Below are positions 4,738 to 27,426 of a stretch of DNA of 57,256 nucleotides, piece after piece. Location: contig CAZRDQ010000001.1 of NCBI GenBank assembly GCA_964598945.1, positions 1 through 57,256 on the forward strand, given 5' to 3'. Source of the stretch: an uncultured Candidatus Bathyarchaeia archaeon (GTDB lineage Archaea; Thermoproteota; Bathyarchaeia; 40CM-2-53-6; RBG-13-38-9). Under the pieces are notes generated by a model. The model did no database searches, was not told the origin of the DNA, and saw nothing but the letters and a program-made list of their open reading frames with translations. A program made the position numbers and the translations under genes. The stretch's first letter is position 1; every line of letters starts with the position of its first letter.

Positions 4738-5754
4738 GTGAATGACACGGAAACCATTGCAGAAGGTCATGGACAGCTCGTAGGTTTCAGGGATCCTGAC
4801 GAGAACCGCCGCTGGGTCTTGGAGAACAAATCCAGAAAGCTTGAGGACAAGCGAATGAGCGCAAAAGAGGCAGTATCGAGACTCGTTCAATCTGGAGATT
4901 TCATAGCCTCAGGCGGTTTCGGCCATGTCAGAGTCTCAATGGCGATCATCTACGAGATCATCAGACAGAGAAAACAAGGCTTGACGATGGCAGGCAAGAC
5001 TGCCGTGCATGATATAGATCTGCTTGTGGCCTCAGGGTGTGTTGACAAAGTCGAGGCAGCCTATTCTTTCGGATATGAGCTAAGGGGTCTCTCTCACGCC
5101 TCCAGAAGAGCTGTTGAAAAGGGTAGGTGCAAAGTCGTTTCAGAGATCAGTAATGCTGCATACCAATGGCGTTTCTTAGCTGGGATGATGGGGATACCAT
5201 TCATTCCGTCAAGAACATTGCTGGGAACTGACACTTTCAAGAAGAGTTCAGCGAAAGCAGTCACATGCCCTTTTACCAATAAACCATTGGCTCTTATCCC
5301 CTCCTGCAATCCTGATGTTGGAGTAGTGCATGTTCACCGCTGCGATGAGTATGGTAACGCGCAGATCGATGGCGCCTTGATCGAGGATTTTGAGCTTTCA
5401 CGCGCTTCACGCAAACTCATAGTGACCACGGAAGAAGTGACCCCTCACAAGAGGATTAGGGTTGAGCCTTGGCAGACTGCGATACCATTCTACTTTGTAG
5501 ACGCGGTCGTCGAAATCCCCTATGGCGCGCATCCCTGTCAAATGCCGCTGAAGTACTTCTTTGACGAGGAGCACATCTCCGAATGGCTCAACCTCTCCAA
5601 AGATGATGACGGGGTAAGAGAGTATCTCGACAAATACGTCCATTCAGTTGAATCGTTCAAAGAGTATCTGAGACTTGTAGGCGGCCAGAGAAAGCTGAGA
5701 CAACTTGAGAGGATAGAGAAGAGAGGCGGTCTGAGGCCAAGGGGGACGAAATGA
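4738..5754 (+). CDS. Family I CoA-transferase subunit A (glutaconate CoA-transferase GctA-like), copy 1
   Basis: 338 aa with a GTG start. Family blocks are SAKEAV..SGDFIASGGFG, NAAYQWRFLAGMMGIPFIPSR and VHVHRCDEYGNAQIDG. It overlaps the B subunit gene by 4 nt. Confidence 0.8.
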   Translation: MNDTETIAEGHGQLVGFRDPDENRRWVLENKSRKLEDKRMSAKEAVSRLVQSGDFIASGGFGHVRVSMAIIYEIIRQRKQGLTMAGKTAVHDIDLLVASGCVDKVEAAYSFGYELRGLSHASRRAVEKGRCKVVSEISNAAYQWRFLAGMMGIPFIPSRTLLGTDTFKKSSAKAVTCPFTNKPLALIPSCNPDVGVVHVHRCDEYGNAQIDGALIEDFELSRASRKLIVTTEEVTPHKRIRVEPWQTAIPFYFVDAVVEIPYGAHPCQMPLKYFFDEEHISEWLNLSKDDDGVREYLDKYVHSVESFKEYLRLVGGQRKLRQLERIEKRGGLRPRGTK

Positions 5755-6530
5755 TGGCCAAGGAGACCGCTTACACACAGGTCGAACTGATGGCAACAAT
5801 AGCCGCAAGGATGCTTGATGACGGAAGATCAGTGTTCGTGGGCACAGGTCTCCCCGTAATAGCAGCTATGCTGGCTCAGAAGAGTAACGCACCAAACCTG
5901 CTGATAATCTATGAGGCTGGCGGCATAGGCCCCCAATCTCCCGTCATACCAGTATCCGTGGGAGACTCTAGGACTTTCTACCATGGAGTCGCAGCGTCAA
6001 GTATGCACGACGTCATGGCAGCCACCCAAGCAGGATATGTCGATTACGGATTCCTAGGCGCAGCCCAGATCGATATGTTCGGCAACATCAACACCACCGT
6101 GATTGGTGATTATGAGAACCCGAAGGTGCGACTTCCCGGCAGCGGCGGTGCCAATGACGTCGGCTCTCTATGCCACAAGACAATAATTGTGATGAAACAG
6201 GACGAGAAGAGGTTTGTCAAGAAACTTGATTTCATGACGACCCCAGGCTATCTTGCAGGGCCCGGCGAGAGGGAGCGAGTCGGGCTTCCCAGAGATACAG
6301 GTCCATACAGGGTGATCACCCAACTCGGAGTGTATGGATTCAACAGCCAGACAAAGAGAATGATGTTGATCTCGAGGCATCCCGGCGTGAATATCGAAGA
6401 GATCAAGAAGAATTGCGGTTTTGACCTACTAGTCCCACCAGTTGTGATGGACAGCGAAATCCCAACAGGAAAGGAATTGAGGATTCTCAGAGAGATAGAT
6501 CCTGGAAGTATAGTCTTGGGCAGATCTTGA
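5751..6530 (+). CDS. Family I CoA-transferase subunit B (GctB-like), copy 1
   Basis: 259 aa. LIIYEAGGIGP is the catalytic-Glu block, and GAAQIDMFGNINTT and LPGSGGANDV are also present. Confidence 0.8.
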   Translation: MMAKETAYTQVELMATIAARMLDDGRSVFVGTGLPVIAAMLAQKSNAPNLLIIYEAGGIGPQSPVIPVSVGDSRTFYHGVAASSMHDVMAATQAGYVDYGFLGAAQIDMFGNINTTVIGDYENPKVRLPGSGGANDVGSLCHKTIIVMKQDEKRFVKKLDFMTTPGYLAGPGERERVGLPRDTGPYRVITQLGVYGFNSQTKRMMLISRHPGVNIEEIKKNCGFDLLVPPVVMDSEIPTGKELRILREIDPGSIVLGRS

Positions 6531-6747
6531 TCTCAGTCTGCCTTCAACTAGCTTTCACCATTCATCCACCTGAGACAGAATCGACTCAACGTGCCTCGCT
6601 CTAGGTGAACCCATTTCTCAACAGATGCTACCGATCACCGCAGCGTAGCCTCTGGAGCCATGATGACAAGACAAGGATGAAACTTTTAAATCCTGACAAA
6701 CCAACGCCTTGCAATACAAGACGATTGAAAGGTTGAGATGCTAACAG

Positions 6748-7779
6748 ATGGAAATGAAGATTCTCGAGAAAGGAACCAAGTTTGAGAGACCTAAGATAAC
6801 GCCTAACGACTTTCGCGAGTGGGTTCGCGAGAACAAACCGCGCGTTATGGAAGACAAAACGATGGACGCCAAGACTGCTGTGAAGAGATTTGTCAAGAAT
6901 GGCGACATCGTCTCGATAAGCGGCTGCAGCTTCGTGAGGATCCCAGTCGCGATCCTGCATGAAGTACTCAGGCAAGGAATCAAGGACCTGTATGTTGCAG
7001 GAGGCACCAGATCCTACGACCTGAATCTGCTCACCGACAACGGTAGGGTCAGCCACATAGATCCCGGCTACATTATTGGACTTGAGGTCATGGGCATCCC
7101 CAGGATGGCCAGGAAGATTGTGGAGCAGGCCGTCACCAAAGGTGAGATCACACTGACAGAATGGGATAATGCGTCAATGGCTTGGAGACACAAGGCTGCG
7201 GCCATGGGGGTGCCTTTCATGCCGGTAAGGCATATGATGGGCGCAGACGGCTTCAAGTACAGCGGAGCCGTGAAAGTCCAGTGTCCATTCACTGGAGAGA
7301 AAGTTGTTCTGGTTCCAGCCCTCTATACCGATGTAGCGCTGATCCACGTTCACGAGTCAGACATCTACGGAAACGCCAGGATCACATCAGGCGCGATTGT
7401 TGAAGACTGGGGAAAAGTCAGGGGTGCCAAGAGGGTGATCTTAAGCACCGAGAAGATTGTTGACACCGAGGACATCAGGAAACAGCCCGACAGGACATTT
7501 GTCCCTTACTTCTATGTTGACGCCGTGGTAGAGGCGCGTTACGGCTGCCATCCAGGGAACATGCCCGGAATGTACTACGTAGACATGGAACACTTCAACG
7601 AGTACAGGACTGCATGCGAAGACACCACTGGCGAGGCGTTGAAGCAATACTATGACAAGTATGTCTTCAGCGTCAACTCATTTGAAGAGTACCTAGATAA
7701 GATCGGTGGAGAAAAGAAGCTAAAGTATCTTGAAGATCTCGAGTTTCTAAGAGTCAAGCCAAGAGGTGCACCCCAATGA
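6748..7779 (+). CDS. Family I CoA-transferase subunit A, copy 2 (paralog of 4738..5754)
   Basis: 343 aa and colinear with copy 1 (DAKTAVKRFVKNGDIVSISG, NASMAWRHKAAAMGVPFMPVR, IHVHESDIYGNARI). Confidence 0.8.
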   Translation: MEMKILEKGTKFERPKITPNDFREWVRENKPRVMEDKTMDAKTAVKRFVKNGDIVSISGCSFVRIPVAILHEVLRQGIKDLYVAGGTRSYDLNLLTDNGRVSHIDPGYIIGLEVMGIPRMARKIVEQAVTKGEITLTEWDNASMAWRHKAAAMGVPFMPVRHMMGADGFKYSGAVKVQCPFTGEKVVLVPALYTDVALIHVHESDIYGNARITSGAIVEDWGKVRGAKRVILSTEKIVDTEDIRKQPDRTFVPYFYVDAVVEARYGCHPGNMPGMYYVDMEHFNEYRTACEDTTGEALKQYYDKYVFSVNSFEEYLDKIGGEKKLKYLEDLEFLRVKPRGAPQ

Positions 7780-8555
7780 GCGAAGAATACAACGCCATGG
7801 AATTGATGACGATAGTCGCCAGCAGAGACATCGAGGACAAGAAGATAATCTATGTCGGAACAGGCATACCCATGCTCGTCACGTCATTAGCACAGAAGAC
7901 CAGGAATCTGAAGATCACACCGATCTTTGAGGTCGGCGGCATCGGCCCCGAGATGCCAACCCTACCGCTCTCTGTAGCATGCTCAAGAACTACCTGGAGA
8001 GCCCTCAGAGCGGCCGACAGCTCTGAAGCATTCGAGATAGCTCAAGCCGGATTCGCGGACTACGCTTTCCTAGGTGGTGCCCAGATAGACAAGTATGGCA
8101 ACCTGAACTCGACAGTCTTGGGCGACTACCATTCACCCAAAGTGCGGTTTCCAGGAAGCGGAGGGGCGAACGCCTTCGCCTCATTCGCCTGGAAGACCAT
8201 GATCATTATGAATCATGAGAAGCGAAGATTTGTCGAGAAGGTTGACTACATCACTTCACCAGGATATCTTGACGGACCGGGCGCCAGGGAGAGGATCGGG
8301 CTGCCGCCTGGAACAGGGCCGTACAAGGTCTACACGACGAAGTGCACGTTCGACTTCGATGAGAAGACCAAGCGGATGAGGTTGTTCGCTCTCAGCCCGG
8401 GAGTGACAGTGGAAGATGTCGTCGCTAACACAGGATTCGAGCTGGTTATTCCGAACAAGGTAAGGCAGACGGAGCCGCCCAGCCGTGAGGAGTTACGGAT
8501 ACTCAGGGAAGAGGTCGATCCCTACAGGGTGATCCTGGGAAGGGGAGAAGCCTAG
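7776..8555 (+). CDS. Family I CoA-transferase subunit B, copy 2
   Basis: 259 aa with IFEVGGIGPE, GGAQIDKYGNLNST and FPGSGGANAF. It has the same 4-nt overlap architecture as copy 1. Confidence 0.8.
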   Translation: MSEEYNAMELMTIVASRDIEDKKIIYVGTGIPMLVTSLAQKTRNLKITPIFEVGGIGPEMPTLPLSVACSRTTWRALRAADSSEAFEIAQAGFADYAFLGGAQIDKYGNLNSTVLGDYHSPKVRFPGSGGANAFASFAWKTMIIMNHEKRRFVEKVDYITSPGYLDGPGARERIGLPPGTGPYKVYTTKCTFDFDEKTKRMRLFALSPGVTVEDVVANTGFELVIPNKVRQTEPPSREELRILREEVDPYRVILGRGEA

Positions 8556-10115: not shown

Positions 10116-10832
10116 GTGTCTAATTTGAAAGTAATCGACTTGACACAGGAGATCTATAACGGTATGCCAGTGTTTCCGGGCCATCTCAGGACTGTAGTGT
10201 TTCCTTTCCACACACATGAAGAGACAATGGGCTCGGTTCGCGGAGAAAAAGGCGACTTCAGCTACACGACTTTTGGCCTATTGTTATCTGATCACGGCCC
10301 CACTCACGTAGATTCGATCTGGCACATAAGCAACAAACCAGGATCCAAGAAAATAGACGAGATACCCGTTGAAAATTTCCTCACAGGCGCAGTATGCCTG
10401 GACTTCACCAATATCAAGCCCAAAGGCATAATATCCGTGAAGGAACTTGAATCCGCGCTGGGAAAAGCCAAACTCGACGTGAGGAAAGGAGACACATTAC
10501 TTCTCTACACCGGACACTATGACAGAACTTACCCCAAGAAAGAATACCTCACAGAGAACCCAGGCCTGGACCATGATGGCACAGTCTGGCTTGCAGAACG
10601 CGGGGTTATTAACATCGGCATAGACGCCAGCACCATCGACTCCTGCGGCAACACAGCCAACAAGTTCTTTCCGGCACATCAGGTCTGCGCTGAATATGCC
10701 ATAATGAACACTGAGAATCTATGTAACTTAGGCAGAGTGTCAGGCAAACGCTTCACTTATGTCGGGTTGCCTCTGAAGATTCGCGGCGGGACCGGCTCAC
10801 CCATACGCGCGGTCGCACTCCTTGATCAATAG
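10116..10832 (+). CDS. Cyclase-family protein (kynurenine/aryl-formamidase-like), copy 1
   Basis: 238 aa. MPVFPGH...SDHGPTHVDSIWH is a variant of the HxGTHxDxPxH metal site, and GLPLKIRGGTGSPIRAVALL is the family C-terminus. Confidence 0.75.
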   Translation: MSNLKVIDLTQEIYNGMPVFPGHLRTVVFPFHTHEETMGSVRGEKGDFSYTTFGLLLSDHGPTHVDSIWHISNKPGSKKIDEIPVENFLTGAVCLDFTNIKPKGIISVKELESALGKAKLDVRKGDTLLLYTGHYDRTYPKKEYLTENPGLDHDGTVWLAERGVINIGIDASTIDSCGNTANKFFPAHQVCAEYAIMNTENLCNLGRVSGKRFTYVGLPLKIRGGTGSPIRAVALLDQ

Positions 10833-10872
10833 AGCAAATCTTAATAGCTTTCATCTTTGAATCACGAGTCAG

Positions 10873-11586
10873 GTGTTTGACTTGGTCAAGCTCGTAGACC
10901 TATCACAGGAGATCTATCAAGGAATGCCTGTCTACCCAGGCCACCTGAAGACCGTTCTCTGGTATCATAACACACATGAGGAGACCAGAGCATCCTTCCC
11001 GGACGAGTATCCGTTCAGGTCATACGCAAGTATGGGGATGTTGATGAGTGACCACGGCCCGACCCACGTAGACTCGATCTTCCACATCAGACCCGATGGT
11101 GAGACAATAGATAAACTGCCCCTAGAGATGTTCTATACGGAAGCTGTTTGTCTGGACGTGTCTCACGTCCCAGCAGACAAATTCATCACTCTAAAGGATA
11201 TCAAAGACGCTCTTGCCAAACACAAACTGACAGTAAAGAAAGGAGACACCGTACTGCTGTACACGGGCCACTATAACAAGAAATACGGAACAAAAGACTG
11301 GCTCTTCAACTACACAGGCTTGGACATGGAAGCCGCCAAGTGGCTCGGAGATCAAGGGGTTGTGAACATAGGCGAGGACGCACCGAGCATAGACAGCAGC
11401 CAAGCAATGAAGACAAGATTCTACCCAGGACACATAGTCTGCAGAGAGAAACGCATACTGAACACTGAGAATCTCGCGAACCTTGACAAGGTCGCTGGAA
11501 AACGCTTCATCTACGCAGGCTTGCCCCTTAAGATCAAGGGCGGGACAGGCTCCCCGATCAGGGCCATCGCAATCCTCAACGAATGA
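10873..11586 (+). CDS. Cyclase-family protein, copy 2 (tandem paralog)
   Basis: 237 aa and colinear with copy 1 (MPVYPGH, SDHGPTHVDSIFH, GLPLKIKGGTGSPIRAIAIL). Confidence 0.75.
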   Translation: MFDLVKLVDLSQEIYQGMPVYPGHLKTVLWYHNTHEETRASFPDEYPFRSYASMGMLMSDHGPTHVDSIFHIRPDGETIDKLPLEMFYTEAVCLDVSHVPADKFITLKDIKDALAKHKLTVKKGDTVLLYTGHYNKKYGTKDWLFNYTGLDMEAAKWLGDQGVVNIGEDAPSIDSSQAMKTRFYPGHIVCREKRILNTENLANLDKVAGKRFIYAGLPLKIKGGTGSPIRAIAILNE

Positions 11587-11900: not shown

Positions 11901-12713
11901 TTATGACTGATCCTTGTTCTGAGCGGTCTTTTTGGGGAACAGTAGTTGCATGAATTCCAGGCTCTCTTTTCGCCGCTTTTCCAGCTCCTTCTCTCCTCTT
12001 GAGCTTACTGCCGCCAACTCCTGTATCTTCTTGAGCTTCTCGGCATCCTCTTCGGAGTACTTGGCCCAAGGTCTCTCAATCCGCCAAGTTATCTTTTGAC
12101 TTATGGAGGGCTCAGGATAAGCTCCTACATCTTGGAGAGCAAAGCCAAGAACTGAAGTCGGCTCCTCCTGGATGCATGCGTTTATTACCCTTTTGATCGT
12201 TTCAGGATCTATCCTGAGCTTTCGATCATCCTCGAAGAGCAGACTCACGAGTTTGATCTGCTTGCGGAACCTCTCTATGGCTTCAAGCGAGATGTTGTAG
12301 AGATAAGGCGTCAGAGATACCGCCCCAATTATCCCTCTGTTCTCGTTGACACCGTTAGTCATGAAGGCCTCGAAGGTCTGTCCAGGGTGATGACCAACCG
12401 ATTCAACGCCGCACAAGATCACGTATCGAATGTTGGGGTTGGCAATTATATTGCACACTATCTTCTCTATTCCCAGGTTCTCTGTCTGAAGAAAACCTGA
12501 TAGCGCGGCGCCGGCCTCAACAGCGATCTTGGACAGATCTTTCAGAAATCCAGGAATCTTGTCATAATCGGTGTGGAGCAGGATAGCTACGGCGACGGGC
12601 GAATAGTCGTTTCCTCTGAGATAGCTTCCATCCTCAGGAGGATATTTGTCAGGAGGTTTGACTTTGTTTATGTTTTTCAAATCTACAAGCCTTCTGTTGG
12701 ATAGTAGGTTCAT
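11901..12713 (-). CDS. MtrA-like corrinoid-binding protein (homolog of tetrahydromethanopterin S-methyltransferase subunit A, without the C-terminal TM helix)
   Basis: SPVAVAIL..., TENLGIEKIVCNIIANPNIRYVILCGVESVGHHPGQ and RGIIGA... parallel the MtrA blocks CKTENLGIEK..NPNIRFLILCGSEV.GHITGQ. The His in the position of the MtrA cobalt-ligand His is kept. The C-terminus is a charged coiled coil. The start shares an ATGA overlap with the upstream gene. Confidence 0.75.
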   Translation of the reverse strand: MNLLSNRRLVDLKNINKVKPPDKYPPEDGSYLRGNDYSPVAVAILLHTDYDKIPGFLKDLSKIAVEAGAALSGFLQTENLGIEKIVCNIIANPNIRYVILCGVESVGHHPGQTFEAFMTNGVNENRGIIGAVSLTPYLYNISLEAIERFRKQIKLVSLLFEDDRKLRIDPETIKRVINACIQEEPTSVLGFALQDVGAYPEPSISQKITWRIERPWAKYSEEDAEKLKKIQELAAVSSRGEKELEKRRKESLEFMQLLFPKKTAQNKDQS

Positions 12714-13714
12714 AATCTATGCGTTCGCGGTGGCTTCTTAGCCCTCCTCGACAATACATTTTTCTTTGGGAAAACATTTCTTTTCCGATTCCTTCTCAAA
12801 ACCAACACGGCACCACCAGTAACCACTAGCAAAAAGAGAATCATCGTCTTCATCTGCGTACTGGTAGTCTGCTGATGCCCAGGTTGCAGATTTTCCAAAG
12901 TATTCGTAGAAGTCTGAAGAGGTGTTACTGACGGAGGCGGAGTTGGTGAAATCTGAGGCGGAGTCTCGATTGGGGATGTGGAGGGGGTTTCAGGCATCGA
13001 GGTTTCTGTTGGTGTAGGTGCAGGTGATGGAGTCGAGTTTGCTGGCCTATGCCAGTCTACTCTCACTACTAGTCTGGGTTTCAGCTCCTGAGGTTGTGTG
13101 GATTCTCTTGGATAGAAGGAGGCGACCTGATCAGAGGCATTTATCTCATGCCTGATCTTTATCATCGTTCCGTGGTTTTCGGCAGATCCGGAGTGCCACA
13201 TTCCAAGATCATTCGTAATCTCCCAACACACCCATTGTTCTCTTGGAGTTGGGGTTATCGTGGTTGCGGAGGTCCGCGTTCTAGTTGTTGGTGGCTGGGT
13301 TCTCCAGGTGAGTTGGTGTTGGTTCCAGTCGGCCAAGACCCTGTAGGTCTCAAACTCCTGAGCTGCCTTCGGCGGGTCGAACATGAAGAGACACATGTTT
13401 GCTGAGAGCACCTTGGCATCCTTCGGGATCGAGGTGATGTTGAACTTGACGTAGATCCTTGAGGAGCCGTAGAGCTTGTAGGAATCGTACTCAACATACA
13501 TGTTTCCTGCGAATATGGACCAGAGGTATCCGTGAGGATCCTCAGGATACTTGGTTTGCAGATACATGCTGTTGACAAATGTGTCTGCGATCGACGGCTG
13601 GATAATCAGGGTCGACTCAACAGCCCACACATTGACCGCTTGGAGCTGCACCAACAGAAACGAAAGTAAGACCAGGATAAGGGTCTTGGTGTGCAGTCCG
13701 GCCATGATTGACAT
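12710..13714 (-). CDS. Cell-surface protein with signal peptide, DNRLRE-like beta-sandwich domain, Pro/Thr/Ser linker and C-terminal TM anchor
   Basis: The N-terminus is LILVLLSFLLVQLQAVNVWA. The domain shows ADTFVN...SRIYVKFNITSIPKDAKVLSANMCLF...YRVLADWNQHQLTWRTQP. A PTPSPAPTPTETS linker follows, and the C-terminus is ILFLLVVTGGAVLVLRRNRKR. Confidence 0.6.
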   Translation of the reverse strand: MSIMAGLHTKTLILVLLSFLLVQLQAVNVWAVESTLIIQPSIADTFVNSMYLQTKYPEDPHGYLWSIFAGNMYVEYDSYKLYGSSRIYVKFNITSIPKDAKVLSANMCLFMFDPPKAAQEFETYRVLADWNQHQLTWRTQPPTTRTRTSATTITPTPREQWVCWEITNDLGMWHSGSAENHGTMIKIRHEINASDQVASFYPRESTQPQELKPRLVVRVDWHRPANSTPSPAPTPTETSMPETPSTSPIETPPQISPTPPPSVTPLQTSTNTLENLQPGHQQTTSTQMKTMILFLLVVTGGAVLVLRRNRKRNVFPKKNVLSRRAKKPPRTHRL

Positions 13715-13750
13715 CTCTGCGCATCGGGTTTCATGCGTTGAGTAGTGAGT

Positions 13751-14314
13751 TTAGACCACAGATAGTGCGACGAGTAGTATGTAGAGTCCTGCAGCGATGA
13801 GGATTGCGCCGGTTGCCCGATCTATCCATGTGGAGTACTGGGTTATCTTGCTCATCATGGATTGCTTGGTTCTTAGTGTTATGAGGGATACTGCCATGGT
13901 GATGAGTCCCATTCCGAAGCCGTAGGATGCAAGTGCTAGTATGCCGTTCTGGAGGCCGCTTATGAAGGAGTAGAGTATTATCGAGAAGAATACTGGTGCT
14001 GAGCATCCTGAGATGACAAGTCCGAAGCCCAAGCCGAAGACATAGAGCCCCAGCGTTCCCTTCTTGAGGTTTATTCTGGGTGAGAACGAGGGTAGACCCA
14101 AGCCGATTATTTGGAGTAGGCCCAGAACGATTATCGCGACACCAACTATGGATTGTAGCCATGGCATGTAAGTTACGAGGATGCCTCCGATAGATGATAA
14201 GAGAGCTCCTAAGATCGCTAGGACTGTAATGAGTCCTGAAGTGAACACCAGCCCTGAGAAGACGCCGTGTGTTAACGATTTTGATTCAACCAGGTATGCT
14301 ATATATCCGGGCAA
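13751..14314 (-). CDS. ccdA: CcdA/DsbD-family transmembrane thiol:disulfide electron transporter
   Basis: Polytopic membrane ORF with the second conserved Cys in VISGCSAPV. The homologous first TM with its Cys (FAFLAGVSSLLHPCAFALLPGY) is encoded in frame upstream at 14315..14398, where there is no ATG/GTG/TTG. The true 5' end is therefore unresolved. Confidence 0.75.
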   Translation of the reverse strand: MPGYIAYLVESKSLTHGVFSGLVFTSGLITVLAILGALLSSIGGILVTYMPWLQSIVGVAIIVLGLLQIIGLGLPSFSPRINLKKGTLGLYVFGLGFGLVISGCSAPVFFSIILYSFISGLQNGILALASYGFGMGLITMAVSLITLRTKQSMMSKITQYSTWIDRATGAILIAAGLYILLVALSVV

Positions 14315-14403
14315 GAGGGCGAACGCGCATGGATGAAGGAGTGAGGAGACTCCGGCGAGAAAAGCGAAAGTGAAGTTGAAGAATGTGCTCTCAAGAGCTA
14401 AGG

Positions 14404-15054
14404 TTAAGCCTCTCCTTGGATTGCCTTTATTTCTTGGATGATTGTTGGTGCCTCTGCCACTCCTTCATGCCTGAACCGCACGTAGCCATCCTGGTCTATT
14501 ATTATGATGCTGGGAATCAGCGTGATTCGGTATTTGAATGAAGCCCCCTCAATGTCGACAGCGATTCTCCATTTCACATTGTAGGAACTGGCGAAGGTGT
14601 GAAGCTCTTCATTGATTCCTTTTCCTCCATAGACTGAGATCGAGAGGATCTCCACTTTGTCGCCGTAAGCAGAATGGACCTTTGTCAGTTCGATGACCTG
14701 TTGTTTGCACGGTTTGCATTGCGCCCCCATAAAGTCCAGAATCACAATCTTACCTTTGAAGTCGCTTAACGTGAATCGATTTCCATCAATATCCGTGAGA
14801 GTGAAATCTTCAGCTGCGGGATAGCGCGAGTCACCTGTGACCTGATCAGACCCGGTTACTTGCGACGTAGCACCAACTGGGGCGTTGGATAATGTCACGA
14901 ATGCCTCTGTTGAATCACCTTGCCTTGTGAAGTTATATATGGCAACGGATACTAAAGCCACGAATGAAACTAATACCACTGCAACTACGACCGGGTTTTT
15001 CTTCCGGGCATCCGTCCTTTTCTTCAACATGCGTGCTTGGGATTTCCTGCCCAT
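14404..15054 (-). CDS. Membrane-anchored TlpA/ResA-like thioredoxin-fold thiol-disulfide oxidoreductase
   Basis: N-terminal TM helix (VVVAVVLVSFVALVSVAIY) and a redoxin domain with DFMGAQCKPCKQQV (CxxC). Confidence 0.8.
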   Translation of the reverse strand: MGRKSQARMLKKRTDARKKNPVVVAVVLVSFVALVSVAIYNFTRQGDSTEAFVTLSNAPVGATSQVTGSDQVTGDSRYPAAEDFTLTDIDGNRFTLSDFKGKIVILDFMGAQCKPCKQQVIELTKVHSAYGDKVEILSISVYGGKGINEELHTFASSYNVKWRIAVDIEGASFKYRITLIPSIIIIDQDGYVRFRHEGVAEAPTIIQEIKAIQGEA

Positions 15055-15083
15055 GGCTTACTTCCCTTAGCCAGTTGTGCACA

Positions 15084-15488
15084 TCATGATTCTTTATGAA
15101 TGCTAGGTTGTCTCGTGGCTCTAACAATAGCATCCGCTGTCTCTTGCACGTCTTCATCTGAATAGTTAAGCGGGGGCCCCTTGGCGATTCCAAGATCTGA
15201 GACAACATTTATCGTCGCATCAGGTTGATAGCCGGCATTTTCCACTATCTTCCTGGCGCAGTTGAGTGGACAGCCATCAACCGTGATTATTCTCTTGACA
15301 TGTTTCATCTTCTCAAGCACGGGTGTAGCTCTCGTGGCAAGTGCCCCCAGACAGAAGATGTTCGCTGTCTCTAGGCCAACTCTTCTTATTGCTTCAAGAC
15401 CCGCCAACCCTGTTATGCGGCCTACATTCGACATGCATCCGAAGCACACGAACAGAGCGTTATTTGACACATTCTCCGAAAGACTCAT
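15084..15488 (-). CDS. DGC-domain putative zinc-binding protein
   Basis: 134 aa with FVCFGCMSNVG and ITVDGCPLNCA (DGC motif). Confidence 0.65.
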   Translation of the reverse strand: MSLSENVSNNALFVCFGCMSNVGRITGLAGLEAIRRVGLETANIFCLGALATRATPVLEKMKHVKRIITVDGCPLNCARKIVENAGYQPDATINVVSDLGIAKGPPLNYSDEDVQETADAIVRATRQPSIHKES

Positions 15489-15519
15489 GATTTACCATCC
15501 TGACAATCTTTTCAATACT

Positions 15520-16563
15520 CTATAGTCCTCCGATTGCTGCTCCATAGATTAGTCCGAAGGCCACGCTGAACATCCAAGCCACAATGGCGTAGGACAATAC
15601 TACTTTCCATCTCACTATCTTGGACGCTGCCATCATGTTTGGGATGTCATACGGTTGGCCCATGAGCCAAGAGAGCAGGGCTGCTTGGGACATGCCGAGA
15701 TTCAGAAGGCCCCTCCCAAGCACGATCTCCACGAGAGTTGGTGTGTATAGTGGGCCTCCAATGACCGAAGCCAACAATACTCCCTGAACTCCAGTAAGGT
15801 AGTTTACAACGATGTCTTCCGGCATGAAAGCCTCTACGTAGCTGACCATTACTAGACCCGCAAAGAAGAATGGGAGTATCTGCCTTCCAAGGTACCATGC
15901 AAATTTGAGAGCGTTCGTCAGTTTCTCATCCAGAGGGATCTGAACAACGTTCACGGTTGTAGAATGCCCCGGATTGTTAGGTTTATGCTCATTCTCGATC
16001 GCTCTTCCCCAAGGTGTACGGGAGATGATGAGCCCTGCAACCAAGGCGGTAGTTAACGATGTGAAGATCCTTACGATCGCTATCTGCCACGAGATTATCT
16101 CTCCTGTGAGAAGAATGGTGAGGATGTTTGCGGCTGGGGCCATAAGCAAGAACGAGATTGCCGGGCCGATGCCGGCGCCCGCGTAGAGTATACCTGAGAA
16201 TAGCGGGATCATAGTGCATGAGCAGACCGTGAAGAATGGAGCCACACCGATCCCTAAAGCATAGCCTGAAGCTTTGCCGCTGCTCATGTATCTGTTGATG
16301 ATGTCTTTCGGTATGAACTCGTAGATCATCCCTGCTGCGACGAAAGCGAACAGAAGGCATATCCATCCGTGGCTCATGTAATCCCAGATGTAAGCTAACG
16401 GAATATGCCAGAGGGGGAGGCCGTGGAAATCAGCTGGCTTCATGGTTGGAGCCAATGAGTAAGCCATGATTCTGGAGTAGACCAATGCTAGAAAGACCGC
16501 CGCCACGAAAGACGCCAAAATCACGGTTCTCAATGATCTAGTGTGAGGGTTCATTCTGTTCAT
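15520..16563 (-). CDS. Polytopic permease of the ArsP-like / DUF318 'predicted permease' family
   Basis: 347 aa with about 8-10 TM helices and a membrane-embedded CxC (PFFTVCSCTMIPLFSG). It shows the typical linkage to ArsR, a small thioredoxin and a DGC protein. Confidence 0.65.
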   Translation of the reverse strand: MNRMNPHTRSLRTVILASFVAAVFLALVYSRIMAYSLAPTMKPADFHGLPLWHIPLAYIWDYMSHGWICLLFAFVAAGMIYEFIPKDIINRYMSSGKASGYALGIGVAPFFTVCSCTMIPLFSGILYAGAGIGPAISFLLMAPAANILTILLTGEIISWQIAIVRIFTSLTTALVAGLIISRTPWGRAIENEHKPNNPGHSTTVNVVQIPLDEKLTNALKFAWYLGRQILPFFFAGLVMVSYVEAFMPEDIVVNYLTGVQGVLLASVIGGPLYTPTLVEIVLGRGLLNLGMSQAALLSWLMGQPYDIPNMMAASKIVRWKVVLSYAIVAWMFSVAFGLIYGAAIGGL

Positions 16564-16564
16564 C

Positions 16565-16834
16565 CTAGCGGGTATCCGTCTGTTTGATGATTCGCGTTAT
16601 CTCGTCGGGGCTTGGGATTCTGCCGGCGATCCTTACTTGACCGTTAATAGCGACGGCTGGAGAGAGAAGAACACCGTACTTGGCGATGACTTCTTTCGAT
16701 GCGATATTCAGCTTCTGTACAGTAACTTCTGCTCCTTCCTTCCTGAGCAGAGAGGCAGCTTCTTCAGCATTCTTATAGGTAGCAGCACACCTCTTGCACG
16801 GAGGATCAACACCAACAACTTCGATTAGAACCAT
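16565..16834 (-). CDS. Small thioredoxin-fold protein (redox-active disulfide protein 2 / Thioredoxin_3 type)
   Basis: 89 aa with IEVVGVDPPCKRCAATY (CxxC) and SPAVAINGQVRIAGRIPSPDEI. Confidence 0.7.
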   Translation of the reverse strand: MVLIEVVGVDPPCKRCAATYKNAEEAASLLRKEGAEVTVQKLNIASKEVIAKYGVLLSPAVAINGQVRIAGRIPSPDEITRIIKQTDTR

Positions 16835-16835
16835 C

Positions 16836-17222
16836 TTATCGGTACCCCGCCTTTATGCCTTCAATGACGTTTCTGCTTAGTGATTCGACGAGCTCTGGAT
16901 CAACAAAATCTAGCAGTTGGTAAACCTTTGAAGAACTAATCGAATAGAATATCCTGTTTCCCTCTTTCCGCCTTTTTAAGATCCCGCAGTCGACCAAGAC
17001 TTTTAGATGTCTTGAGACCGTTGGTTGAGCGAACCCGACGGTTGGAACAATCTTGCAAGCACATTTCTCGCCTTCCCTAAGAAAGTCGATTATCTTCAGC
17101 CTACTGGGATCTGACAGGGCCTTGAATACTGTAGATTTGAAGTTGAGCATGCTGATCTCGTCCATACGCTTCACAGACTTGGGTGAGTGTAAATAGATCA
17201 TAGTTATCAAGCTATATGGCAA
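16836..17222 (-). CDS. ArsR/SmtB-family metal(loid)-responsive repressor
   Basis: FKALSDPSRLKIIDFLREGEKCACKIVPTVGFAQPTVSRHLKVL is a winged HTH with a CxC in helix 3, as in As(III)/metal-sensing ArsR. The likely real start is Met-20 (MDEISML, about 17165). Confidence 0.8.
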   Translation of the reverse strand: MPYSLITMIYLHSPKSVKRMDEISMLNFKSTVFKALSDPSRLKIIDFLREGEKCACKIVPTVGFAQPTVSRHLKVLVDCGILKRRKEGNRIFYSISSSKVYQLLDFVDPELVESLSRNVIEGIKAGYR

Positions 17223-17233
17223 TATTTAAATAT
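17222..17233. promoter_or_regulatory. Perfect 12-bp AT palindrome ATATTTAAATAT in the divergent arsR / tolB-like control region (candidate TATA element or operator)
   Basis: Read directly from the sequence. It lies between the probable real starts of the two divergent genes (about 17165 and about 17271). Confidence 0.2.
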
Positions 17234-19280
17234 GCCCCGTTCGATTCCGTATTCGAGGTGTGGATGGTCGATGCACAAGCCGAACAGGATCCCTTTCAGC
17301 CTAGCGGGAGTATCCTTTCTGATAGTCACGATTTTTCTTCTATCACTTCCCGTCAACACACTGGGTCAAGACCCTTCACGTGATTATGGTACTGCCGTGC
17401 AAAATCCGCTTCAGCGGACTCTTGACGCATACGGAAAAGGACCATTTTGTGCGGGCTGTCACAACATACCATATCCTCTCCCTCCTGAGAATCCGCTTTC
17501 TCCATCAATGTATCCAGTTGGAGATACCAAGGCGGAAGTTGGACTTAAACGGCTCACAAGTAGTCAAGGTAGAGATGTCGGAGCGGTCTATAGCCCCAAG
17601 GAGAATAAGATCGTCTGGGTCACAGACCGTCTCGGGAACTGGACCGTCTGGGTCATGAATGATGATGGAACCAGCAAGAAGCAGTTAACTCCAAGTAACG
17701 TTATCAGCGGTTGGCCTTCGTGGAGCCCGGATGGCCAGGAGATAGCCTACTGGTCGTACAACCTAACATCCAAGACCTGTGACATCTGGAAGACCAGGAT
17801 CGACGGCAGCTCCAGAGCCCGGCTCACAGCTGATGGCAGCTTCAAGGGGCCGCCCATGTGGAGTCCAAGAGGCGACAGAGTAGCCTACACAGCAAACCAG
17901 ACAGGAAACATGGAAGTATACATCATAAACACTGATGGAACCGGAGAGAGACAGATTACTGCAGGACACAGTCCTAGCTACTCTGTTGAGACCCGCCCAA
18001 CATGGAATCCCAACGGAGTGATTTTGTACTATCAAGCGTTGACCTTTCCACTTCCACCGCTCACAGTCCCAACCATCACAGGAGACGTAGCATACGTAGA
18101 GATATTCTCGCTCAACGTGGATACTGGCCTGGAACTTAACCTCACGCCGAAACTGCATGAGAATGTTCGCAGCGTCAGCTCAGACGGCAAGATAGCCTAC
18201 ATCTCACTGCGCTCACCAAACTACGGCCTATGGATCATGAATGAGGATGGAACAGGCCAGACAAGACTAACCTGGAACAACAAAGGCGACAGAGCACCCC
18301 GCATCACCCCAGACGGAAAAAGAATAGTCTACTGGTCGCTGGCATCAGGCAACCCTGACATATGGATGATCAACGCTGACGGAACCAACAACACCCAGCT
18401 GACAAGCAGCCCCTACATGGATGTTTACCCATCCTGGAGCCCTGACGGAAGGAAGGTAGCCTTCGAGTCAGACAGAGCAGGCAGCTTCGACATCTGGGCC
18501 CTCTCACTAGACCAACCACTGAATGTTAATGTGGAATTCGAAACCTGCGCAACGAAGGGTGAGACCGCAAAGGCGCTCTTAACAGTTAGCCCCGGCGATG
18601 GTCATGGCGTAATCCGGCTTGAGAGCATTGGACTGAGATTCGACTGGGACGAAGTAGGCAATTATGTTAATCCTTCTGGTCCGCTTCCCTCCACTGTCTC
18701 AAGTCCAAACAATACATTCCGAATACCAATTGAATTCAAGGTCCCAGCCAATGCCACATCTGGATACCACTTCTATGACATCAAGATTCAATACTCAACG
18801 ACCAGCACCAGCGACTCTGATTCGAGAATGACGTATGAACACAGCGCTGGAGATTTGGAGGTTGACGTTCCTGAGCACGCCCAATGCGATCTGCTCTTCA
18901 TCGAACTCGGCGGGAAACTGGACGAACTGCACAGAAAAGCTTTGGATGAATCTGCTGAGCTGGGTCTGACAACCTCTGAGGTAGCTGTTCCTTTGAAGGG
19001 CTACTTCGACTATTTGCTGAAGCCTGAGGCTAAGCCGTTCCTCGAGTCAAACAGGGAATTCTATGAGGCAACGCGCCTTTATCTGGCTGGCGACTACTCC
19101 TCAGCGCTTGTCCGTTTTCAAAACGTAAAGGCCCAAGTTAGCAGACAGCCAATGGACAAAGTGGGGGGACAAACCTTATTCGGCACGCAAACACTGCTTG
19201 CGCTTTTGCCTGTGATCTTGATTGCTGCGCTCCTCGTACTTCACACGAGGCGCAGAAATAGACAGGTCAAGAAGAGTTGA
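17232..19280 (+). CDS. Surface-anchored TolB-like WD40/PD40 beta-propeller protein with an N-terminal CXXCH motif and C-terminal TM anchor
   Basis: Signal/TM segment FSLAGVSFLIVTIFLLSLPVNTLG. CAGCH lies at residues 73-77. PD40 repeats recur (WSPDGQEIAY, WSPRGDRVAY, ITPDGKRIVYWS, WSPDGRKVAFESDR). The C-terminus is LLALLPVILIAALLVLHTRRRNR. Confidence 0.75.
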   Translation: MPRSIPYSRCGWSMHKPNRIPFSLAGVSFLIVTIFLLSLPVNTLGQDPSRDYGTAVQNPLQRTLDAYGKGPFCAGCHNIPYPLPPENPLSPSMYPVGDTKAEVGLKRLTSSQGRDVGAVYSPKENKIVWVTDRLGNWTVWVMNDDGTSKKQLTPSNVISGWPSWSPDGQEIAYWSYNLTSKTCDIWKTRIDGSSRARLTADGSFKGPPMWSPRGDRVAYTANQTGNMEVYIINTDGTGERQITAGHSPSYSVETRPTWNPNGVILYYQALTFPLPPLTVPTITGDVAYVEIFSLNVDTGLELNLTPKLHENVRSVSSDGKIAYISLRSPNYGLWIMNEDGTGQTRLTWNNKGDRAPRITPDGKRIVYWSLASGNPDIWMINADGTNNTQLTSSPYMDVYPSWSPDGRKVAFESDRAGSFDIWALSLDQPLNVNVEFETCATKGETAKALLTVSPGDGHGVIRLESIGLRFDWDEVGNYVNPSGPLPSTVSSPNNTFRIPIEFKVPANATSGYHFYDIKIQYSTTSTSDSDSRMTYEHSAGDLEVDVPEHAQCDLLFIELGGKLDELHRKALDESAELGLTTSEVAVPLKGYFDYLLKPEAKPFLESNREFYEATRLYLAGDYSSALVRFQNVKAQVSRQPMDKVGGQTLFGTQTLLALLPVILIAALLVLHTRRRNRQVKKS

Positions 19281-26172: not shown

Positions 26173-27426
26173 TTGAACATACTGACTCTCAACTGTGGCA
26201 GCTCATCAGTCAAGTACTCGCTCTGGGATATGCGTAAGTTTCAGAAGATCTCAAGCGGCATTGTGGAACGTATCGGACTTGAGGGGGCATTCATAGAACA
26301 TCAGACCATGAGCGACTCCCCTGTAAGACTGAAACGGTCTGTGGCCGATCATTCTGAAGCAATCAGTCTGGTGCTGGGACTGACCAAGGCGCCTCTTGTG
26401 TCTGAAAACCATAGCCGCAAGATCGATGCAGTCGCTCACAGAATAGTCCATGGAGGCGACAAGCTGGTACACTCAACGATCATCGACGAGAAGGTCAAGT
26501 CAGAGATCTCAAAGTGTAGTGAACTCGCCCCCCTGCATAACCCTCCCAACCTAGTTGGGCTGGAATCAGCGATGAAGCTTCTGCCTCAAGTCCCTCACGT
26601 AGGCATCTTTGATACTGCCTTCCTTTCAACAATTCCTTCACATGTCTACACTTACGCTATACCAAAGGAATGGACGCAGTCATACGGAGTTCGACGCTAT
26701 GGCTTTCATGGAACGTCACATCTCTATGTGAGTAGAAGAACTGCTGCGCACCTCGGCAGGCCTTACAGCCAGGTCAACATGATCACTCTGCACATCGGAA
26801 ACGGCGTCAGTGTCACAGCGATCAAGCGCGGCTTGGCTTATGACCACAGCATGGGATTCACTCCGCTTGAAGGGGCTGTGATGGGAACTCGTTGTGGGGA
26901 TCTTGACCCAGCCATTCCACTGTACCTTATGCGAAAGCTGAACTTGACATCTGAACAGATGGAGGATGCGCTTAACCGAAAGAGCGGTCTTCTAGGGATT
27001 ACACAGAGATACTCCGATCGAAGAGACATTCTCAGGGGTGTTGATTCAGGAGATGAAGACTGCAAACTAGCTTTTGAAGTCGAATGCTACAGGCTCAAGA
27101 AATACATAGGGTCATACGCAGCAGCCCTCGGCCAACTTGACGCGATCACATTTACAGGCGGCACAGGCGAGCGGGCTCCGCGATACAGGGAGACCATCTG
27201 TTCAGGACTCGAACAGCTTGCTATACAGATTGACAAAGAGAGAAACGACAAAGCCTCAGGGGAAAGTGAGAGCGAGATAAGCAGCGACTCCTCAAGAACC
27301 AAAGTCTTTGTTATCCCTACTAATGAGGAGTTAGTGTTCGCTGAGGACGCGGCTGCTCTCTTGGAGGGCAGGTACGCGCCGCACTGGAAGTTCAGGTATT
27401 CATTCGAGAACAGAGTCAACGATTAG
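26173..27426 (+). CDS. ackA: Acetate kinase
   Basis: 417 aa with a TTG start. ILTLNCGSSSVKYSLW, HRIVHGG, NPPNL, RRYGFHGTSH and VIPTNEELV are canonical AckA blocks. Confidence 0.9.
   Translation: MNILTLNCGSSSVKYSLWDMRKFQKISSGIVERIGLEGAFIEHQTMSDSPVRLKRSVADHSEAISLVLGLTKAPLVSENHSRKIDAVAHRIVHGGDKLVHSTIIDEKVKSEISKCSELAPLHNPPNLVGLESAMKLLPQVPHVGIFDTAFLSTIPSHVYTYAIPKEWTQSYGVRRYGFHGTSHLYVSRRTAAHLGRPYSQVNMITLHIGNGVSVTAIKRGLAYDHSMGFTPLEGAVMGTRCGDLDPAIPLYLMRKLNLTSEQMEDALNRKSGLLGITQRYSDRRDILRGVDSGDEDCKLAFEVECYRLKKYIGSYAAALGQLDAITFTGGTGERAPRYRETICSGLEQLAIQIDKERNDKASGESESEISSDSSRTKVFVIPTNEELVFAEDAAALLEGRYAPHWKFRYSFENRVND

Follow-up and report, generated by a model that had tools for sequence, protein, structure and literature searches.

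An MtrA-like, predicted corrinoid-binding protein as an accessory of arsenic-resistance operons in Bathyarchaeia and other anaerobes

The stretch of DNA analyzed here (hereinafter the window) comprises 57,256 nucleotides (positions 1 to 57,256 of contig CAZRDQ010000001.1, assembly GCA_964598945.1) from an uncultured Candidatus Bathyarchaeia archaeon. Its minus strand carries, at 11901–17222, eight co-oriented and tightly spaced open reading frames (ORFs), which code in order for an ArsR regulator, a small thioredoxin (Trx_3), an ArsP_1 permease, a DGC-domain protein, a TlpA-like redoxin, a CcdA-like transporter, a DNRLRE-domain surface protein and a soluble MtrA-like protein. Surveying its relatives across Archaea and Bacteria, we find the MtrA-like gene to be a genuine accessory of the arsenic-resistance (ars) operons of anaerobes, one that is ancient, mobile and widespread. 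The explanation that we favor overall, and advance tentatively, is that the eight genes form a single ArsR-repressed arsenical-detoxification operon, with an MtrA-family corrinoid protein as its last gene, which would serve to methylate arsenic.

Genomic association of MtrA-like genes with ars genes

The survey drew on one genome per GTDB species and on peptide patterns specific to the MtrA-like subfamily. It returned 460 pattern matches, 445 of which encode a relative of the query; the best 80 of these 445 loci were kept and, together with metagenome contigs, make up the 82 non-redundant loci on which all locus counts below are based. The families of neighboring genes were identified by tblastn with the window proteins and by all-vs-all clustering of the flanking ORFs. 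ArsR, ACR3, ArsP, ArsM, ArsC, Trx_3/ArsE and DGC were counted as ars-family genes when they lay within 7 kb.

By these measures, an ars-family gene lies in the vicinity of the MtrA-like gene in 48 of the 82 loci, and one coding for ACR3, ArsP, ArsM or ArsC in 40 of them; in 30 loci an ars-family gene on the same strand is found no more than 400 nt away. The most frequent neighbors are ArsR (36/82), Trx_3 (28/82), ACR3 (26/82) and ArsP_1 (23/82), followed by ArsM (12/82), DGC and an ABC-2 exporter (11/82 each), ArsC (10/82), CcdA-like proteins (8/82) and DUF169 (7/82). Neighbor identities were verified for ACR3 (TIGR00832, 465 bits) and ArsM (NF008823, 349 bits against a cutoff of 263), as well as for the arsC-type LMWP, DUF169, DsbD_TM and ABC2 families. 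The neighbors also retain the cysteine motifs of their families: a helix-3 CxC, mostly in the form ELCVCE, is present in 33 of 40 neighboring ArsR proteins, the ArsP-type CSC (including TPFCSCS-type versions) in 24 of 25 permeases, and a CxxC in all 31 Trx_3 proteins. Of 78 strict ars genes, 69 share the strand of the MtrA-like gene, and their density per flank, 0.22 within the nearest kb, has dropped to about 0.04 by 6 kb. This strand bias and decay with distance, along with the phylogenetic spread described below, led us to reject a chance adjacency to ars genes.

The association is seen in more than 12 phylum-level lineages, among them Bathyarchaeia, ANME-1, Hadarchaeota, Chloroflexota, Acidobacteriota, Actinomycetota, Spirochaetota, Aerophobetes and Fraserbacteria, and takes the form of many different gene orders. 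A contig closely related to the window (locus L001) shows the order ArsR-Trx_3-ArsP_1-TlpA-CcdA-CBM96-MtrA-like; L002 has ArsR-ACR3-Trx_3-ArsP_1-MtrA-like, L005 has MtrA-like-ArsR-ACR3-...-LMWP ArsC, and in L009 an operon of the window type is followed by ArsR-ACR3-...-ArsM. Elsewhere, the ArsP and MtrA-like genes overlap by 10–14 nt in metagenome-assembled genomes (MAGs) labeled as Nitrososphaeria, ArsM overlaps the MtrA-like gene in ANME-1, the order ArsR-ArsM-ACR3-ArsC-MtrA-like is found in Acidobacteriota, and an uncultured bacterium shows ArsP-MtrA-like-Trx_3-DGC. In a neighbor-joining tree of the MtrA-like proteins, almost every clade includes members with this association, the exceptions being one Desulfobacterota clade and the Asgard archaea. 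Within that Desulfobacterota clade (L039, L053, L061, L065, L070, L075 and others; P0121–P0240), the ArsM neighbors in L080 and L081 are themselves exceptional.

An earlier reading of the window, made from its letters alone (hereinafter the sequence-only reading), had proposed that its own suggestion of a metal(loid)-related role would fall if the MtrA-like gene were not conserved together with the permease module in relatives. The two are conserved together, and the adjacency to ars genes spans both Archaea and Bacteria, which is broader than had been expected. Because the subfamily repeatedly adjoins ArsR, ArsP_1, Trx_3 and DGC along with ACR3, ArsM and ArsC in both superkingdoms, arsenic is indicated rather than another thiophilic metal, and we hold a functional link between the MtrA-like protein and arsenic to be very probable.

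Several further families recur in these neighborhoods. In the flanks of the MtrA-like gene (L011, L014, L028–L030, L044, L055, L057), genes for a small cupin, an ABC ATPase and an ABC-2 permease are found repeatedly, as is, in archaeal loci, a DUF169 gene, which either immediately precedes the MtrA-like gene or is placed between those for Trx_3 and ArsP. In Acidobacteriota and in one Bathyarchaeon, a block comprising GcvH-like (lipoyl-carrier-type), DGC, OsmC-like and Trx_3 genes is found next to it (L009 12846–14261; L064 5728–7798; L069, L074), and these appear to be further ars-associated thiol proteins. The ars locus of an ANME-1 (Methanospirareceae) MAG holds two copies of the MtrA-like gene: the first overlaps ArsM, and the second (L028 5449–6321) codes for a C-terminal extension of about 70 residues in which no Pfam domain was found.

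The MtrA-like protein and its predicted cobamide site

The MtrA-like protein of the window (11901–12713, minus strand) is recovered by the MtrA family profile PF04208 with 139.6 bits against a cutoff of 25 (E = 1.1e-40) and by the subfamily profile NF002126 with 181.3 bits against a cutoff of 161. It falls well under the threshold of the mtrA equivalog TIGR01111 (132.2 bits vs 249.15). A hydropathy scan detected no transmembrane (TM) segment in it, and in its structural model the C-terminus is a charged helix; mtr genes are found neither in the window nor as recurrent neighbors in the 82 loci. On these comparisons, the protein is a member of the MtrA Pfam family but not of the methanogenic Mtr complex, and represents a distinct subfamily. 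It differs from methanogen MtrA in lacking the C-terminal TM helix and the mtrEDCBAFGH neighbors, its genomic partners being ars genes instead. The source annotations of its archaeal and bacterial homologs all read "MtrA" or hypothetical, and we found no arsenic-related names among them.

The closest structural relative is the cobalamin-bound cytoplasmic MtrA homolog of Methanothermus fervidus (PDB 5LAA; E = 4e-34), with which the window protein shares the family, the fold, the lower-ligand network of the His84/Glu54 type and most of the contacts to the nucleotide tail. An AlphaFold2 (AF2) model with a predicted local distance difference test score (pLDDT) of 82 matches 5LAA in a Foldseek comparison with E = 2.7e-18, a target TM-score of 0.93 and a root-mean-square deviation of 2.2 Å. 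In the modeled chain, an MtrA Rossmann domain spans about residues 15–185 and includes His108 and Glu78; the other elements are a conserved TWRIxxPW loop and a long, charged C-terminal helix (221–258). His84, Glu54, Asn55, Thr53, Gly57, Asn64 and Tyr18 of MtrA have been described as cobalamin contacts by Wagner et al. (PMC4915002), and H108, E78, N79, T77, G81, N88 and Y31 of the window protein align to them in that order; all seven aligned positions are invariant or nearly so in 65 MtrA-like homologs. H108, located within the ESVGH motif, thus takes the place of the cobalt ligand His84, and the proposal of the sequence-only reading that the protein is soluble and keeps the cobalt-ligand histidine is borne out. 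From this conservation, we consider it probable that the MtrA-like protein binds a cobamide. Identity to MtrA and 5LAA is about 38%, however, and the subfamily is set apart from them by a YLRGND motif of its own, the TWRIxxPW loop and the long charged C-terminal helix.

We also considered a cysteine-based As(III) metallochaperone activity for the MtrA-like protein and rejected it, as many bacterial members have a Gly or a Phe at the position of C101 and the subfamily conserves few cysteines. A separate feature of the subfamily is its connection with iron–sulfur proteins. Some members are fused to an N-terminal 2x[4Fe-4S] ferredoxin, and in others, such as that of L050, a gene for a small ferredoxin immediately precedes the MtrA-like gene (P0102–P0107, P0112, P0117; L077/L038/L048; L050 5823–6212; L040 3315–3980). 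The resulting cofactor set resembles that of HgcA/HgcB. By analogy with HgcAB or the corrinoid iron–sulfur protein (CFeSP), these fusions and neighbors suggest an electron input to a redox-active cofactor.

Organization of the Bathyarchaeial operon

In the window, the eight minus-strand genes, their cysteine motifs and their tight packing are all present as the sequence-only reading had described them, and its family assignments are upheld by profile searches, in the case of CcdA only remotely. From arsR onward the intergenic gaps are 1, 1, 31, 29, (−4), 36 and −4 nt. The last value reflects an ATGA overlap between the stop codon of the DNRLRE gene and the start codon of the MtrA-like gene, and the bracketed one, between TlpA and CcdA, holds only if a TTA serves as the start of CcdA. 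Hence, the spacing and the ATGA overlap that had been proposed are real, and it is the outer bounds of two genes that need revision: ArsR, for which a later start is likely, and CcdA, for which a canonical start is lacking. No clear oligo-T terminator was seen 3′ of the MtrA-like gene, which closes the operon.

The first gene (16836–17165, minus strand, with the frame open to 17222) codes for an ArsR/SmtB regulator (HTH_5, E = 3.6e-15; NF033788, 94.6 bits vs a cutoff of 55). As gene calling in contig L001, which is nearly identical, gives an ArsR of 104 residues, translation most likely starts at ATG 17165 (MDEISML...), with TTG 17222 merely the outermost possible start. Its helix-3 CxC motif, GEKCACKIV, is a variant of the classical ELCVCE, and this GE(K/R)CxC subtype of ArsR accompanies ArsP and Trx_3 in other loci too. 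About 45–70 nt upstream of the ArsR ATG, an A/T palindrome, ATATTTAAATAT, lies over a TATA-like box and is followed by GCCATATAGC; at the same place in L001 (about 5866–5895) there is a perfect 20-bp palindrome, GGCTATATTTAAATATAGCC, and related palindromic elements are found upstream of arsR in L009 and L017. The palindrome at 17211–17236, a candidate promoter/operator assigned to neither strand, is plausible as the ArsR operator. This element sits between arsR and a divergent gene coding for a PD40/TolB-like protein, and might be either an ArsR operator or a bidirectional promoter.

The next three minus-strand genes complete a known unit. The first of them codes for a small cytoplasmic Thioredoxin_3 protein of the MTH895/ArsE family (16565–16834; PF13192, E = 6.6e-15) with a CKRC motif, which scores 51.5 bits with TIGR00412, under its cutoff of 62. 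It is followed by the ArsP_1 permease (15520–16563; PF03773, E = 4.3e-43, 148 bits), for which a hydropathy scan indicates about 8–10 hydrophobic segments and which, besides the PF03773 match, has the conserved membrane Cys pair of ArsP, CSC, in FTVCSCTMIP. This permease is 85% identical to that of L002, which is encoded between ACR3/Trx_3 and the MtrA-like gene. The third is a DGC-domain protein (15084–15488; PF08859, E = 1.5e-22) with a putative Zn/Cys4 site. The DGC gene is cleanly absent from the L001 operon (L001 7585–7653), the other genes of which are 78–95% identical at the protein level (tblastn), and the operon thus varies in its modules. The same four families form the compact, ArsR-headed, arsenic-induced ArsR-ArsP-ArsE-DGC operon ("operon C") of Pseudodesulfovibrio mercurii ND132 (preprint 10.1101/2022.10.17.512643). 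The ArsR / Trx_3 (ArsE-like) / ArsP-type permease / DGC combination is accordingly a module already known to recur, as the sequence-only reading had recognized for the first four genes; relative to operon C, the window operon adds the TlpA-like, CcdA-like, DNRLRE and MtrA-like genes.

The fifth and sixth genes, both on the minus strand, code for an apparent extracytoplasmic thiol-reducing pair. The TlpA/ResA-like redoxin (14404–15054) combines a thioredoxin fold and a CxxC motif (CKPC) with an anchor, a hydropathy scan placing its single N-terminal TM segment at residues 22–40. The AhpC-TSA and Redoxin profiles exceed their cutoffs (E = 8.7e-17 and 3.5e-14), and the protein remains under the thresholds of the ResA and TlpA families proper (NF002854 ResA, 75 bits vs a cutoff of 170; TlpA, 31 vs 230). 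Its partner (13751 to about 14407) is predicted to be a six-TM, CcdA-like thiol-electron transporter. In its 218-residue form it yields no Pfam match even at E < 0.1, including PF02683 DsbD_TM and PF13386, and scores no more than 36.9 bits with the ArsG family NF040495, the cutoff of which is 200. It does match the CcdA of PDB 5VKV (phmmer, E = 1e-8) with both active-site cysteines aligned, and the DsbD_TM-positive CcdA of the bacterial ars locus L079 (BLASTP, 3e-12); one of its cysteines lies in HPCAFALLPGY and the other in SGCSAPVF, in line with the single conserved Cys (PC motif) that CcdA/DsbD transporters have in each of TM1 and TM4, and its hydropathy profile agrees with six TM segments. 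The pair thus resembles the CcdA/TlpA (ResA) pathway in placing a six-TM, two-Cys protein beside an anchored CxxC redoxin, and differs from it in having no cytochrome c maturation context, no DsbD_TM match and a non-canonical start.

As regards that start, TM1 and the first cysteine (HPCAFALLPGY) precede the first ATG, GTG or TTG, and the CcdA frame is open through the TlpA stop codon. The TTA at 14407–14405 aligns with a TTG start in L009 and is also a TTA in the independent contig L001. Since the differences between the window and L001 are synonymous here, the upstream stretch is under selection at the protein level; this and the conservation of the TM1/Cys motif make it unlikely that the ORF is a truncated pseudogene starting from TTG 14314. 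A non-canonical start, termination–reinitiation or a frameshift could account for the arrangement (window 14314–14410; L001 8270–8340; L009 8255–8300), and no slippery heptamer that would allow a −1 TlpA-CcdA fusion is evident.

The sequence-only reading had regarded the CcdA/TlpA extension as an unfamiliar addition to the permease module. The window is not alone in having it: a periplasmic thioredoxin of the lipoprotein type and a DsbD_TM-type CcdA lie beside ACR3 in the bacterial loci L050, L057, L073 and L079, and CcdA adjoins ACR3 in L046 as well. Extracytoplasmic thiol-reducing pairs, i.e., TlpA or Trx with CcdA, can thus be viewed as recurrent ars accessories. The same cannot be said of the seventh gene (12710–13714, minus strand), which codes for a DNRLRE/CBM96-domain surface protein (NF033679, E = 5.9e-27; CBM96, E = 5.8e-15) with a signal-like N-terminus, a Pro/Thr-rich stalk, a C-terminal TM segment and two cysteines. 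Only in the window, L001, L009 and L017, four Bathyarchaeia loci that are closely related, does it immediately precede the MtrA-like gene, and it is a lineage-specific part of the operon; the co-conservation that the sequence-only reading had asked of this gene as well is seen in those four and nowhere beyond them.

The rest of the window is ordinary Bathyarchaeon chromosome, with genes for ribosomal protein S19e, Nep1, topoisomerase VI, MetRS and a RIO kinase among others, and the best homologs are from Bathyarchaeia; tRNA and Rfam scans of the 57 kb found nothing. The operon is flanked by two tandem CoA-transferase A/B-like pairs and two tandem cyclase-family (PF04199) paralogs (4738–8555 and 10116–11586), and a PF04199 pair also adjoins the MtrA-like gene in L007 and L001. 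Farther away, the topoisomerase VI subunit A gene (27574–30252) is split by an intein (892 residues, with the Intein_splicing match at residues 357–815), and at 26173–27426 and 46412–47896 this archaeal contig codes for an acetate kinase of bacterial type (PF00871, 449 bits) and for a fusion of DHDPS with Fae.

Candidate roles in arsenic metabolism and their implications

Arsenite is known to be methylated by methylcobalamin when thiols are present, and likewise in extracts of methanogens; ArsP exports trivalent methylarsenicals. Under the explanation that we favor, the MtrA-like protein would carry a methyl-cobamide in the His-on form and pass the methyl group to thiol-bound As(III) or methylarsenite (MAs(III)). 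The small cytoplasmic thiol proteins Trx_3 and DGC would reduce the arsenical and hand it over, and the ArsP-type permease would export the methylated trivalent product. CcdA would carry reducing equivalents outward to the anchored TlpA-like redoxin, so that the extracytoplasmic thiols would be kept reduced despite the exported arsenicals, with the two-Cys DNRLRE surface protein as a possible target of this reduction. We regard the individual claim that the MtrA-like protein acts as a methyl donor to arsenic as possible but doubtful. The generalization that the subfamily is the corrinoid carrier of a B12-dependent arsenic methyl-transfer, be it methylation or demethylation, that is independent of S-adenosylmethionine (SAM) and widespread in strict anaerobes, is one we put forward with a shade more reserve.

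Several observations speak against this explanation. Like typical ars operons, the window has an ArsR with an As(III)-type CxC at helix 3 and the known ArsR/ArsP/ArsE/DGC module, but it lacks the strictly arsenic-specific ACR3, ArsB, ArsC and ArsM. No gene for ACR3, ArsC or ArsM was found anywhere in the 57-kb window, and such genes do occur in three homologous loci, L002, L009 and L005. Of the proposals of the sequence-only reading, the link of the MtrA-like gene to the permease module is supported by the neighborhoods in relatives; its scheme of cobalamin-dependent methylation stays hypothetical. The permease of the window also falls under the cutoffs of all named NCBIfam subfamilies, with no match to a curated ArsP equivalog; PF03773 is a broad family, and the only sub-threshold matches are to the SO_0444 Cu/Zn efflux and SaoE families. 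Further, the operon codes for no methyl-donor methyltransferase, and no MtrH/MeTr-like, MT2 or RamA-like/activase family was present in 4 or more loci in the all-vs-all clustering of neighbors. A second methylation route also looks redundant, given that ArsM, which is SAM-dependent, is encoded in 12 of these loci and in some of them overlaps the MtrA-like gene. Lastly, 34 of the 82 loci have no ars neighbor, and the members of the Desulfobacterota clade, 82–91% identical across many MAGs, occur in unrelated contexts without ars genes.

The absence of arsenic-specific genes from the window, its ArsR site of EKCACK rather than ELCVCE, and the weak permease matches to Cu/Zn and SaoE efflux families could all be accommodated if the window operon dealt with another thiophilic metal(loid) (Sb, Hg, Cd, Cu or Zn, for example), with an organosulfur compound or with one of selenium, so that the arsenic link of its relatives would not transfer to it. 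Yet the same ArsR subtype and the 85%-identical permease adjoin ACR3 in L002, the same operon type precedes ArsR-ACR3-...-ArsM in L009, the permease CSC motif fits the ArsP type, and the homologous ND132 module is arsenic-induced; we consider a different substrate quite improbable. More improbable still, in our estimate, is that the MtrA-like gene is a remnant of one-carbon (C1) metabolism, i.e., a methyl carrier related to methyl-tetrahydromethanopterin with no functional connection to the adjacent ars genes. Such an origin would account for the 34 loci without ars genes and for the ubiquitous annotation as MtrA, and the MtrA/MtrAH proteins of non-methanogens have been treated in the literature as remnants of C1 methyltransferases (PMC9635834; PMC11291895). 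It is difficult to reconcile with the ars genes that adjoin or overlap the MtrA-like gene on the same strand, in differing orders, across more than 12 lineages of phylum level, with the lack of MtrH or other C1 genes as recurrent neighbors, or with a protein that misses the TIGR01111 threshold and has no membrane anchor.

Two other explanations keep the connection to arsenic. The methyl group might move in the reverse direction, with cob(I)amide taking it from methylarsenate (MAs(V)) or dimethylarsenate (DMAs(V)), as an O2-independent counterpart of the ArsI type, and the released As(III) being exported. For the anaerobic demethylation of DMAs, the mechanism of which has yet to be established, corrinoid methyltransferase systems are suspected in the field (PMC10579292; preprint 10.64898/2026.08.27.747368). 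The hosts are all anaerobes, neither the ArsI nor the ArsH family recurs in the neighborhoods, an ArsP_1 permease, ACR3 and the MtrA-like gene come together in 12 loci, and the ferredoxin fusions suit the need for Co(I). On the other hand, the recurrent neighbors include neither a substrate-specific MT1-type enzyme nor a methyl acceptor system, the co-occurring ArsM would set up a futile cycle, the pentavalent methylarsenicals are not very toxic, and to abstract a methyl cation from MAs(III), which is trivalent and toxic, would be chemically unfavorable; we judge demethylation unlikely. A role in redox chemistry or cofactor protection, which we rate as rather unlikely, would have the protein reduce pentavalent or organo-arsenicals for export by ArsP or ACR3, or buffer or repair a cobamide pool attacked by As(III) and thiols in Wood–Ljungdahl organisms. 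B12-dependent arsenical reductases have no known precedent, methyl transfer is the sole reaction for which a His-on site of the MtrA type is known (PMC4915002), and several loci already hold ArsC for As(V) reduction. Conversely, the hosts are mostly corrinoid-reliant organisms, the 2x[4Fe-4S] fusions provide the cofactor set of reductive B12 enzymes, and the MtrA-like gene has no fixed partner, with ArsP, ACR3, ArsC, ArsM, DGC, Trx_3 or DUF169 beside it depending on the lineage; the high conservation of the Desulfobacterota clade outside ars loci likewise suggests a more general role.

The methylation of arsenic by the MtrA-like protein, which we continue to prefer to these alternatives, would be comparable to two known systems. 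ArsM would give the same kind of product, methylarsenicals, and shares operons with the MtrA-like gene in 12 loci, but it has another fold, cofactor and methyl donor. The likeness to HgcAB is one of functional analogy only: in both cases a corrinoid protein, in some MtrA-like members along with a ferredoxin, would act on a thiophilic toxic element, and HgcAB is often ArsR-regulated or located near ars genes. The two are not homologous, HgcA being CFeSP-like, Cys-on and membrane-anchored as opposed to the His-on, soluble window protein of the MtrA fold, and we see no link to mercury. The family, PDB and fold matches of the window protein are solely to MtrA.

We found no published link between MtrA and ars operons in the literature searched, the coverage of which is incomplete for subscription journals, so that a prior description is possible; in the full text of PMC9635834 arsenic is nowhere mentioned. 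The comparison suggests that an ars operon with a corrinoid-protein component is apparently undescribed, its core module being already known. The finding parallels the debated connection of the corrinoid protein HgcA with arsenic resistance.

The methylation and demethylation of arsenic in anoxic soils control its toxicity and mobility and the straighthead disease of rice. To our knowledge, the only established arsenic methylase is the SAM-dependent ArsM. Non-methanogens hold thousands of genes that now bear the annotation "tetrahydromethanopterin S-methyltransferase subunit A" and are taken for remnants of methanogenesis or C1 metabolism; most of the MtrA-like subfamily probably functions in metalloid detoxification instead. 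A predicted B12-binding protein encoded in the ars operons of many anaerobic phyla offers a concrete, cloneable candidate, which makes the question directly testable. If the proposed role is true, the MtrA-like gene would be a missing gene for the long-observed methylcobalamin-linked arsenic methylation, or for anaerobic demethylation, in sediments, paddy soils and methanogenic consortia, and B12-dependent arsenic methyl-transfer would be the arsenic counterpart of HgcAB.

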